Source: Escherichia coli
Lineage (GTDB): Bacteria > Pseudomonadota > Gammaproteobacteria > Enterobacterales > Enterobacteriaceae
Assembly (NCBI RefSeq): GCF_030013595.1
Contig: NZ_CP122768.1
Length of the DNA: 64,000 nt
Strand: one strand, 5' to 3'
Made by a program: the position numbers and the translations under genes
Shown: piece by piece, positions 6,177-11,840 of the stretch
Layout of the letters: the number at the start of each line of letters is the position of its first letter
How positions within the stretch are numbered: the first letter of the stretch is position 1
The notes under the pieces: model-generated
The model's input: only the letters and a program-made list of their open reading frames with translations
What the model was told of the DNA's origin: nothing
Databases searched by the model: none

Positions 6177-7640
6177 ATGTCTTTAGCAAAAGATAATATA
6201 TGGAAATTATTGGCGCCCCTGGTGGTGATGGGTGTCATGTTTCTTATCCCTGTACCTGACGGTATGCCGCCGCAGGCGTGGCATTACTTTGCAGTGTTTG
6301 TGGCAATGATTGTCGGCATGATCCTCGAGCCAATTCCGGCAACGGCGATCAGTTTTATTGCGGTTACTATTTGCGTTATTGGCAGTAATTACCTGCTCTT
6401 TGATGCCAAAGAATTAGCTGACCCAGCGTTTAATGCGCAAAAACAGGCGCTGAAATGGGGTCTGGCTGGTTTTTCCAGCACCACGGTATGGCTGGTATTT
6501 GGCGCATTTATTTTTGCATTAGGGTATGAAGTTTCCGGGTTAGGCCGTCGTATTGCCCTTTTCCTGGTGAAATTCATGGGCAAACGCACGCTGACGTTGG
6601 GTTATGCGATTGTCATTATCGACATTCTGCTGGCACCGTTTACACCGTCCAACACCGCGCGTACCGGGGGTACGGTTTTTCCGGTCATTAAAAACCTGCC
6701 GCCGCTGTTTAAATCATTCCCGAACGATCCGTCCGCGCGTCGTATTGGCGGCTATTTGATGTGGATGATGGTCATTAGTACCAGTCTGAGTTCGTCCATG
6801 TTTGTCACCGGTGCGGCACCAAACGTGCTGGGTCTGGAGTTCGTCAGCAAAATTGCCGGTATCCAGATTAGCTGGTTGCAGTGGTTCCTCTGCTTCCTGC
6901 CGGTTGGGGTTATCTTGCTTATCATTGCGCCGTGGCTTTCCTACGTACTGTACAAACCGGAAATCACACACAGTGAAGAAGTGGCAACCTGGGCGGGTGA
7001 TGAACTAAAAACCATGGGTGCGCTGACGCGCAGAGAGTGGACGCTGATTGGCCTTGTATTGCTCAGCTTAGGTTTGTGGGTATTTGGCAGTGAAGTCATT
7101 AATGCTACTGCGGTAGGTCTGCTGGCAGTTTCGCTGATGCTGGCGCTGCACGTTGTGCCGTGGAAAGACATTACTCGCTATAACAGCGCATGGAACACGC
7201 TGGTCAACCTGGCAACGCTGGTTGTGATGGCTAATGGCCTGACCCGTTCTGGCTTTATCGACTGGTTCGCCAACACGATGAGTACACACCTGGAAGGCTT
7301 CTCACCAAACGCAACGGTGATTGTACTGGTTCTGGTGTTCTACTTTGCACACTACCTGTTTGCTAGCCTGTCTGCGCACACCGCAACCATGCTGCCGGTT
7401 ATTCTGGCCGTCGGTAAAGGTATTCCGGGCGTACCAATGGAACAACTGTGTATTCTGCTGGTGCTGTCTATCGGTATCATGGGCTGTCTGACGCCGTATG
7501 CAACCGGTCCTGGGGTGATTATTTACGGCTGTGGCTATGTGAAATCAAAAGATTACTGGCGTCTTGGCGCAATCTTCGGGGTGATTTACATCTCTATGTT
7601 GCTGTTGGTTGGCTGGCCGATTCTCGCCATGTGGAACTAA
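6177..7640 (+). CDS. citT: Citrate/succinate antiporter
   Basis: 487-aa highly hydrophobic ORF downstream of citG. Confidence 0.9.
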   Translation: MSLAKDNIWKLLAPLVVMGVMFLIPVPDGMPPQAWHYFAVFVAMIVGMILEPIPATAISFIAVTICVIGSNYLLFDAKELADPAFNAQKQALKWGLAGFSSTTVWLVFGAFIFALGYEVSGLGRRIALFLVKFMGKRTLTLGYAIVIIDILLAPFTPSNTARTGGTVFPVIKNLPPLFKSFPNDPSARRIGGYLMWMMVISTSLSSSMFVTGAAPNVLGLEFVSKIAGIQISWLQWFLCFLPVGVILLIIAPWLSYVLYKPEITHSEEVATWAGDELKTMGALTRREWTLIGLVLLSLGLWVFGSEVINATAVGLLAVSLMLALHVVPWKDITRYNSAWNTLVNLATLVVMANGLTRSGFIDWFANTMSTHLEGFSPNATVIVLVLVFYFAHYLFASLSAHTATMLPVILAVGKGIPGVPMEQLCILLVLSIGIMGCLTPYATGPGVIIYGCGYVKSKDYWRLGAIFGVIYISMLLLVGWPILAMWN

Positions 7641-7707: not shown

Positions 7708-7753
7708 GATTTAATAGATAGTATTCAGTGTATGTATGAGTTCCACACCCATT

Positions 7754-8560
7754 ATGAAAGCATTCTGGCGTAACGCCGCGTTGCTCGCGGTTTCTCTGCT
7801 TCCCTTCTCTTCTGCCAACGCCGTAGCGTTGCAGGCAAAACAGTATGGCGATTTTGATCGCTATGTCCTGGCCCTCTCATGGCAAACCGGATTTTGCCAG
7901 AGTCAACACGATCGAAATCGTAACGAACGAGATGAATGTCGCCTGCAAACCGAAACGACCAACAAAGCTGATTTTCTGACCGTACATGGTCTGTGGCCAG
8001 GATTGCCTAAATCGGTTGCTGCCCGTGGTGTTGATGAACGCCGCTGGATGCGCTTCGGTTGCGCTACTCGCCCAATCCCGAATCTACCAGAAGCGCGCGC
8101 CAGCCGAATGTGTTCATCGCCGGAAACCGGGTTATCGCTGGAAACGGCCGCTAAACTAAGTGAAGTCATGCCAGGAGCTGGCGGACGTTCCTGCCTGGAA
8201 CGCTACGAATATGCCAAACACGGTGCCTGCTTTGGTTTTGATCCAGACGCATACTTCGGCACGATGGTACGCCTGAATCAAGAAATTAAAGAGAGCGAAG
8301 CCGGAAAATTCCTTGCGGATAACTACGGTAAAACAGTGAGCCGCCGTGACTTTGACGCCGCCTTTGCCAAAAGCTGGGGAAAAGAGAACGTGAAAGCAGT
8401 TAAGCTAACGTGCCAGGGTAACCCTGCGTATTTGACTGAAATTCAGATCTCGATCAAAGCTGACGCCATCAACGCTCCGCTTTCTGCCAACTCATTCTTG
8501 CCACAACCACACCCAGGCAACTGTGGCAAAACCTTTGTGATTGATAAAGCAGGTTATTAA
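7754..8560 (+). CDS. rna: Periplasmic ribonuclease I
   Basis: ORF 7736-8560; start at MKAFWRNAALLAVSLLPFSSANA (signal peptide) gives 268 aa. Confidence 0.9.
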   Translation: MKAFWRNAALLAVSLLPFSSANAVALQAKQYGDFDRYVLALSWQTGFCQSQHDRNRNERDECRLQTETTNKADFLTVHGLWPGLPKSVAARGVDERRWMRFGCATRPIPNLPEARASRMCSSPETGLSLETAAKLSEVMPGAGGRSCLERYEYAKHGACFGFDPDAYFGTMVRLNQEIKESEAGKFLADNYGKTVSRRDFDAAFAKSWGKENVKAVKLTCQGNPAYLTEIQISIKADAINAPLSANSFLPQPHPGNCGKTFVIDKAGY

Positions 8561-8789: not shown

Positions 8790-9200
8790 ATGTCCAGACC
8801 AACTATCATCATTAACGACCTGGATGCCGAACGCATCGATATTCTGCTGGAGCAACCCGCCTATGCTGGTTTGCCAATCGCCGACGCGTTAAACGCAGAG
8901 TTGGATCGCGCCCAAATGTGTTCGCCAGAAGAGATGCCACACGACGTGGTGACAATGAACAGCCGGGTTAAATTCCGCAATCTTAGCGATGGCGAAGTGC
9001 GTGTGCGCACGCTGGTGTATCCGGCAAAAATGACCGACAGCAATACTCAGCTTTCCGTTATGGCTCCGGTAGGTGCTGCACTGCTGGGGCTGCGCGTTGG
9101 CGATTCCATTCACTGGGAACTTCCGGGCGGCGTTGCAACCCACCTTGAAGTGCTGGAACTCGAATACCAGCCAGAAGCTGCTGGCGACTACCTGCTTTAA
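8790..9200 (+). CDS. rnk: Regulator of nucleoside diphosphate kinase (GreA/GreB-like)
   Basis: 136-aa [25 protein letters not shown]... Confidence 0.9.
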
Positions 9201-9342
9201 TCCCATCTGCACAAGCGATAACTCGCTTTGCCCAGAGGATGCACTCGCATCCTCTTTCCGCTCAAATATCAACCAGATTTATCATTTTGCTCTTAAGCGC
9301 AGCATTCTAATCTGAACTGGTTATTCATCTGCGGAACCTCAT

Positions 9343-9432
9343 ATGAGCGAAGCTCTCGGTATCACTGCATTTTATATATTCATAGCCGCAATTATTGTTG
9401 CTGCAGTGCTATACCTTGAACAACGCTGGTAG
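9343..9432 (+). other. Candidate small hydrophobic ORF (29 codons), unconfirmed
   Basis: ATG at 9343 to TAG at 9430 translates MSEALGITAFYIFIAAIIVAAVLYLEQRW, a single predicted transmembrane helix; no strong Shine-Dalgarno seen. Confidence 0.25.
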
Positions 9433-9555
9433 CGCCTGGTTTTATTTATTTTCCAGCTCAATAGCAAATTCAGATCAAATCAGCCTCGCAAATCATAGAT
9501 TCATAACCAATAATGTGCTGTTATGTATACATGCAAAAACAAGGAGAGAATGCTT

Positions 9556-9984
9556 ATGTACAAAACAATCATCATGCCAGTGGATGTTTTCGAAATGGAA
9601 TTGAGCGACAAAGCGGTTCGCCACGCTGAATTCCTCGCCCAGGATGACGGAGTTATTCATCTACTTCACGTACTACCGGGGTCAGCCAGCCTGAGCCTGC
9701 ACCGTTTTGCCGCTGATGTACGTCGTTTTGAAGAGCATCTGCAACATGAAGCAGAAGAACGTTTGCAAACGATGGTCAGCCACTTCACCATCGATCCTTC
9801 CCGCATTAAGCAACATGTCCGTTTTGGTAGTGTGCGGGATGAAGTTAACGAGTTAGCGAAAGAACTTGATGCAGATGTAGTAGTGATTGGTTCGCGTAAC
9901 CCATCAATTTCAACTCATCTGTTGGGTTCTAACGCCTCGAGCGTGATCCGCCACGCCAATTTGCCGGTGCTGGTTGTGCGTTAA
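9556..9984 (+). CDS. uspG: Universal stress protein G
   Basis: ORF 9523-9984; start at [19 protein letters not shown]... gives 142 aa. Confidence 0.9.
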
Positions 9985-11670: not shown

Positions 11671-11840
11671 GTTTATCTCCTGGGCTTTAAACATCATCAT
11701 GCAAGCGGCCTCTGCGGCTACCTGGATGCAGCTTGCATCATGGTGCGGGGAAGAAAATCGGGTGCCGCAGCACCCGAAGAATTAGGTGAATTTCCGAAGT
11801 ATTTCGCGCCGGAGTTGGTAGCGCGAAAGACGAAGGAAAT

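Follow-up and report, generated by a model that had tools for sequence, protein, structure and literature searches.

Why is ybdR absent between rnk and uspG in some E. coli genomes, and what is the small hydrophobic open reading frame (ORF) found there? Both questions arose from an earlier note on a stretch of 64,000 nucleotides of E. coli DNA (hereafter, the window), made from its sequence alone. The note placed the K-12 ybdR gene between uspG and rnk, and the annotated order in MG1655 is indeed uspG, ybdR, yldA, rnk and rna. Its reading of the window also agrees with the ORF list: the last base of rnk is 9200 and the first of uspG is 9556, which leaves a gap of 355 bp without a long ORF. We found no ybdR and no remnant of it in this interval by blastn or tblastn.

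The gene order in the window, taken from the sequence and the ORF list, is citT (6177–7640), rna (7736–8560), rnk (8790–9200) and uspG (9556–9984), with ahpF and ahpC beyond uspG, both on the minus strand. The uspG start at 9556 is the one annotated by RefSeq in strain AR_0013, which is 100% identical to the window in the interval. According to the ORF list, none of the ORFs above 31 aa is confined to the 355 bp; those that touch the interval all enter from rnk or uspG, or are antisense to these two genes. The sole hydrophobic 29-codon ORF of the interval is located at 9343–9432 on the plus strand and encodes MSEALGITAFYIFIAAIIVAAVLYLEQRW, identical to the sequence given in the earlier note. 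The features on which the analysis relies are as follows.

8790–9200, plus strand: rnk (regulator of nucleoside diphosphate kinase), the left flank; DNA 99.8% identical to K-12
9234–9255, plus strand: rnk 3' hairpin, AGAGGATGC-ACTC-GCATCCTCT, with a 9-bp stem
9262–9537, no strand assigned: haplotype-specific segment of 276 bp, the counterpart of 1611 bp in K-12
9333–9336, plus strand: putative Shine-Dalgarno-like GGAA, weak, 6 nt 5' of the yldA ATG
9343–9432, plus strand: yldA, predicted to encode a 29-aa single-helix small membrane protein; CFT073 allele, WP_001287361.1
9433–9555, plus strand: yldA–uspG spacer, 123 bp, without homology to the sequence preceding uspG in K-12
9556–9984, plus strand: uspG (universal stress protein G), the right flank; 91.8% DNA identity to K-12

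By homology, the 29-codon ORF at 9343–9432 is yldA, a small membrane protein gene that is already annotated. Its product matches the NCBIfam equivalog NF041476 ("small membrane protein YldA") over the full length of the model (1–29 of 29) with 59 bits and an E value of 3.2e-16, above the curated cut-off of 45 bits. With the Pfam family PF23689 (YldA-like) the window allele obtains 22.9 bits (E 9e-5), below the gathering score of 27 bits, so that one of the two curated models formally does not include it; the K-12 allele scores 73.6 bits, and the model appears to be centred on K-12-type sequences. RefSeq places yldA at exactly this ORF in both AR_0013 and CFT073, with the same protein accession, and each of the sampled full-length megablast matches of the 355 bp is annotated "yldA: small membrane protein YldA". 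The K-12 gene (b4734, product MAEAFYILIGFLIMAAIIVMAVLYLENHS) is located between ybdR and rnk, and VanOrsdel et al. (2018; PMC6001520, Table 1) detected its protein by immunoblot, using a chromosomal SPA tag. Two suggestions of the earlier note therefore fall. The small ORF does not stand in place of ybdR, because K-12 has its own yldA allele directly beside ybdR, and it is not an uncharacterised candidate, given the NCBIfam and Pfam families, the RefSeq annotation and the immunoblot of the K-12 allele. Both the gene and the ybdR-less variant are already known, and are visible in a comparison of the K-12 and CFT073 reference genomes.

The two alleles are nevertheless far apart. Each encodes a product of 29 aa that has a single hydrophobic helix, each follows rnk on the same strand at a distance of about 140 nt, and they have in common the motif AAIIVxAVLYLE together with the invariant residues E3, A21, V22, L25 and E26. 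Yet the window allele is only 52% identical to that of K-12 (15/29 residues), its C-terminal end is QRW instead of NHS, and nearly all of the codons conserved between the two alleles differ at a synonymous site. The gene that follows also differs: in K-12 it is the convergent ybdR, with 3 nt between the stop codons, whereas in the window it is the co-directional uspG, 123 bp away.

To define the replaced segment, the window was aligned to K-12 by blastn. The two sequences are 97.7% identical as far as 9261 and 97.2% identical again from 9538, which sets the boundaries of the indel: homology is lost at 9262 and returns at 9538. The 276 bp in between (9262–9537) stand opposite 1611 bp of K-12 that comprise the K-12 yldA allele, ybdR and the divergent control region of ybdR and uspG. 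Low-stringency blastn detected no DNA similarity between the two segments, and sensitive blastn and tblastn detected no ybdR remnant in 9262–9537 (best E 0.46 and 2.4). Short collinear matches to the 5' end of ybdR in a MAFFT alignment were rejected as an alignment artefact, the blast hits being insignificant and out of order. The left edge of the divergent block is sharp and directly follows the rnk 3' hairpin, which is the last stretch common with K-12. The right edge is mosaic, and the region upstream of uspG is non-homologous between K-12 and the window up to 18 nt before the ATG. DNA identity to K-12 is 99.8% for rnk, 98.3% for rna and 98.5% for ahpF, and 91.8% for uspG. The divergence of uspG (8.2%, vs 0.2–1.7% for the other three) is concentrated at 9538–9600 and 9800–9925, a mosaic that suggests old recombination tracts.

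Further along, the ahpC–ahpF gap also varies in length: K-12 has 244 bp, CFT073 has 170 bp, as does the window, and AR_0013 has 128 bp. K-12 has about 74–80 extra bases there (window ~11815–11820; L001 3530–3609), which are GC-rich and resemble a palindromic repeat (…CTCACCCCGGTCACTTACTTGTGTAAGCTCCCGGGGATTCAC…).

The earlier note had left a choice between a strain-specific deletion and ancestral absence. A megablast search with the 355 bp gave full-length matches in 1816 of 5426 complete E. coli genomes, which are thereby of the window type; 3598 are of the K-12 type. CFT073, a phylogroup B2 reference strain, is of the window type, and K-12 and O157:H7 Sakai carry ybdR. ybdR is also absent from E. 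albertii, from Escherichia sp. MOD1-EC7003 and from "E. coli" SCPM-O-B-8794, a divergent strain; all of them encode a window-type YldA, with a single I-to-M change in one of the three. The 355-bp spacer is 87% identical to the window in E. albertii, and 93% and 95% identical in the two other lineages; this divergence is in line with that of the flanking genes and thus consistent with vertical descent. A true deletion of ybdR has a different appearance. In strain HH97 the flanks are of the K-12 type and a 192-bp pseudogene fragment is left of ybdR; this internal deletion (L085 2577–2921) is a rare third state, in which yldA is annotated with 141 nt rather than 90. In the window, neither K-12-type DNA on both sides of a junction nor a ybdR remnant, the marks of a recent deletion, was found.

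That a K-12-like ancestor recently lost ybdR in this strain, the small ORF being a chance product of the junction, is thus exceedingly improbable. Such a loss would fit the position of ybdR between uspG and rnk in K-12, and HH97 demonstrates that real ybdR deletions are known in E. coli; it would have to explain an arrangement common to a third of the complete genomes and three further species or lineages of Escherichia, a 276-bp segment that neither resembles its K-12 counterpart nor holds a trace of ybdR, and an ORF that is under purifying selection (see below) and has a K-12 counterpart, which it would not have as a junction artefact. The dissimilar segments, the lack of a remnant, YldA alleles only 52% identical, the diverged uspG and the contrast with HH97 together point to an old alternative haplotype and not to a recent deletion. 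The deletion proposed in the earlier note can therefore be set aside in favour of an old ybdR-less haplotype. We conclude, with a probability of about 0.9, that E. coli has two major haplotypes at this locus, in one of which rnk–yldA–uspG is the normal order, and that the ORF is a divergent allele of yldA.

In several respects this resembles an ordinary gene-content polymorphism of E. coli, with two alternative blocks (33% and 66%), near-identical flanks, a sharp left edge and a mosaic right edge. It differs in that both blocks contain a homologous yldA, at 52% identity, while the adjacent rnk is 99.8% identical. Under the two-haplotype reading, ybdR would be an accessory gene that, when present, lies convergent to yldA, between yldA and uspG, and it would never have been part of the window haplotype in recent history. 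The K-12-type block (the other yldA allele, ybdR, the uspG upstream region and the diverged uspG) would represent the alternative allele, likewise old, which homologous recombination in the flanking DNA has maintained or transferred.

To place the two haplotypes in the family, we used a Rnk-anchored search of genome contigs, which yielded 80 enterobacterial loci that were checked for ybdR, uspG and small hydrophobic ORFs. All four combinations occur: yldA without ybdR (the window, some Citrobacter, Lelliottia, Phytobacter), yldA with ybdR (K-12, C. sedlakii, many Enterobacter), ybdR without yldA (Salmonella, Silvania) and neither gene (Kluyvera, most Kosakonia, the C. freundii complex). Even within E. 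asburiae, ybdR status differs between two loci (L026 and L056). The four states and the change within E. asburiae indicate that ybdR is an accessory gene here, one that has been gained or lost repeatedly. The C. freundii complex and its relatives (L006, L007, L009–L011, L015–L017, L020, L038) lack the rnk hairpin as well as both genes, and their rnk–uspG gap is only about 190–205 bp. At several loci of this type ahpF is not within 4 kb, so that the neighbourhood is rearranged.

Which haplotype is the older is a separate question. Parsimony over four Escherichia lineages makes the ybdR-less state the probable ancestral condition of the genus Escherichia. Our confidence is held at this level because E. 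fergusonii is absent from the sample, several outgroups have ybdR, and the distance between the K-12 and Salmonella copies of ybdR is like that of the neighbouring genes. These last two points belong to the opposite polarity, in which the haplotype with ybdR is ancestral for Escherichia and E. coli, and B2-type E. coli acquired the ybdR-less block (yldA allele, spacer and uspG allele) from a different species of the genus through recombination. Salmonella, C. sedlakii and many Enterobacter have ybdR at the same site; the K-12 gene is about 79.5% identical to those of Salmonella (79.4%) and C. sedlakii, and its neighbours are similarly distant (rnk 81–82%, uspG 78–79%, ahpF 84%), which fits vertical descent. 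Sharp or mosaic edges such as those of the block are, moreover, typical of recombination. We consider this polarity rather unlikely: all non-coli Escherichia lineages recovered lack ybdR, and the spacer differs from each of them about as the flanks do, so that no recent donor is visible. As ybdR flips within genera and species, its presence in outgroups is also weak evidence. An ancestral ybdR-less state accordingly remains our preferred polarity.

Taken by itself, a 29-codon ORF is no more than expected by chance, since the list for the window contains dozens of similar size. What places yldA above chance is its conservation, always with 29 codons and about 140 nt 3' of rnk, in many enterobacterial genera. 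The gene was found in 34 of the 80 rnk loci, as well as in AR_0013 and K-12, immediately downstream of rnk and on the same strand. Every locus has 29 codons from the aligned ATG, two of them with an additional in-frame ATG upstream. The genera represented are Escherichia, Citrobacter, Enterobacter, Lelliottia, Leclercia, Pseudenterobacter and Phytobacter, with one species of Kosakonia. Alignment of the surveyed loci gives the consensus MxExLxITLxFLIxxAIIVxAVLYLERHW, in which M1, E3, A21, V22, L25 and E26 are invariant. Between the window and the three other Escherichia lineages there are 5, 3 and 7 nucleotide differences in yldA; 15/15 are at third codon positions, 14 being synonymous and one nonsynonymous. 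For the window and E. albertii, dN is 0 and dS is 0.46. Over the whole set of sequences, third positions are about twice as diverse as first and second positions. Differences confined to third positions, a dN of 0 and the family-wide codon pattern point clearly to strong purifying selection on yldA at the protein level. The conservation check proposed in the earlier note thus came out in favour of the ORF, which is kept across enterobacterial genera.

It might still be argued that the ORF is untranslated in the window haplotype, the interval consisting only of the uspG promoter and 5' leader. The Shine-Dalgarno match (GGAA) is weak, no promoter was called in the interval, and 55% of the small ORFs tested in the tagging study yielded no protein (PMC6001520). 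A noncoding leader, though, would not hold 15/15 substitutions to third codon positions, nor would the 29-codon frame and six invariant residues be kept across genera, and K-12 does produce the protein from its homologous allele. We regard a noncoding interval as very unlikely, and the 29-codon ORF as a genuine, strongly constrained small-protein gene.

The sequences around yldA give some indications of how it may be expressed. The rnk 3' hairpin at 9234–9255 has a folding energy of -15.5 kcal/mol (z -4.25), and none of 200 shuffled sequences folds as well. Its stem sequence is kept in 65 of 81 enterobacterial loci, with or without yldA or ybdR; the stem is almost unchanged and the loop freely variable, so that it is the sequence that is conserved and not just the pairing. 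The hairpin probably serves to terminate rnk transcription or to stabilise the 3' end, and the conservation of its stem exceeds the need of a plain terminator. Just three Ts follow it, which makes some read-through into yldA possible. A consensus scan of 9201–9555 found no sigma-70-like promoter for yldA or uspG and no terminator-like site, and no stable hairpin was found between yldA and uspG, where the folding of 9415–9470 is no better than that of shuffled sequences (z 0.36). The cross-genus alignment of yldA upstream regions contains the conserved rnk hairpin, a short TCA-C block and, at the position of the GGAA before the ATG, a purine-rich GGRR motif in other genera; it contains no convincing -35/-10 pair. 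A search for structured RNA in 9100–9650 returned a sole Rfam hit, to the eukaryotic snoRNA snoZ223, which at 27 bits against a gathering score of 45 was dismissed as chance (9255–9337, minus strand, E 0.0047).

The two haplotypes place these elements in different settings. For K-12, ybdR–yldA is listed among the convergent excludons (PMC12288877), and there yldA would face ybdR in a convergent, overlapping transcript pair. The window haplotype lacks this antisense partner and has uspG next on the same strand. Since yldA is co-directional with uspG and no convincing terminator lies between them, its transcription may run into uspG, and the yldA–uspG spacer must hold the uspG control region of the window haplotype. 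With both the whole uspG upstream region and the partner of yldA differing by haplotype, the regulation of yldA and uspG is likely to be haplotype-specific.

To obtain clues to what YldA does, we compared it with the small membrane protein YoaI. All of the 33 distinct YldA sequences match the NCBIfam YoaI model NF041475, an equivalog with a curated cut-off of 45 bits, and all remain below that cut-off (best E 1.2e-8); the window YldA scores 30 bits (E 4e-7), figures to be read with the caution that both proteins consist mostly of one hydrophobic helix, where composition can inflate scores. By score YldA is not a member of the YoaI family but a relative. In the converse comparison, K-12 YoaI (b1788; L083 8079–8183) hits the YldA model without gaps and in an identical register, in which YldA residue n corresponds to YoaI residue n+5. 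The matching positions are E3/E8, I7-T8/I12-T13, F11/F16, V19/V24, V22/V27, L23/L28, E26/E31 and R27/R32. The invariant V22 and E26 of YldA thereby fall on V27 and E31 of YoaI, and the position of YoaI Ser26 is occupied by the invariant Ala21. In YoaI, S26, V27 and E31 are invariant and E31 is located in the cytoplasmic tail (Vellappan et al., PMC11429745, section 12); the substitutions E31A and E31Q abolish both EnvZ binding and omrB activation (PMC11429745, section 12).

The resemblance extends to the overall architecture. YldA has one hydrophobic helix with a 21-residue core (residues 5–25) and a polar tip at each end, from which, together with the family name, we infer that it is a membrane protein. 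YoaI is likewise a single-pass small membrane protein, as YldA is predicted to be, and exactly three residues follow the conserved Glu in both. YldA differs from YoaI in lacking its five N-terminal residues, in having Ala where YoaI has the invariant Ser26, and in its genomic location; PhoB control, EnvZ binding and EnvZ–OmpR activation are established for YoaI alone (PMC11429745 for EnvZ). The matches to the YoaI model, the fixed register and the superposition of E26 on E31 suggest that YldA may be a paralogue of YoaI.

On this basis a role for YldA can be sketched, tentatively and by analogy. YldA would have a single transmembrane helix (about residues 5–25) and a short C-terminal tail L-E-(R/Q/N)-(H/R)-W, with the N-out/C-in topology of YoaI. 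As a small protein it could then modulate a larger protein of the inner membrane, plausibly a sensor kinase, by way of Glu26, which is juxtamembrane and invariant. We hold this picture of an inner-membrane YoaI paralogue acting on a membrane partner via E26 to be possible but doubtful. Likewise doubtful, and offered as speculation, is the fuller version in which a shortened YoaI paralogue tunes EnvZ or another kinase through E26 and is wired differently in the two haplotypes: in K-12-type strains yldA would be opposed by convergent ybdR transcription, and in B2-type strains it would be co-directional, and possibly co-transcribed, with the stress gene uspG, the upstream region of which is replaced as well. 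We found no literature linking YldA to YoaI: the YoaI paper is not among the full-text matches to "YldA", and a 2025 review of small membrane proteins does not mention such a link. The relationship between YldA and YoaI and the haplotype-specific wiring to uspG might be the sole new part of these results.

For the biology of E. coli, the locus means that what lies upstream or downstream of yldA and uspG is non-homologous between the two major haplotypes, and that expression data obtained for uspG and yldA in K-12 should not be transferred to B2-type strains. For the role of YldA itself, the match to YoaI, which includes the EnvZ-binding residue, provides a concrete and cheap hypothesis.
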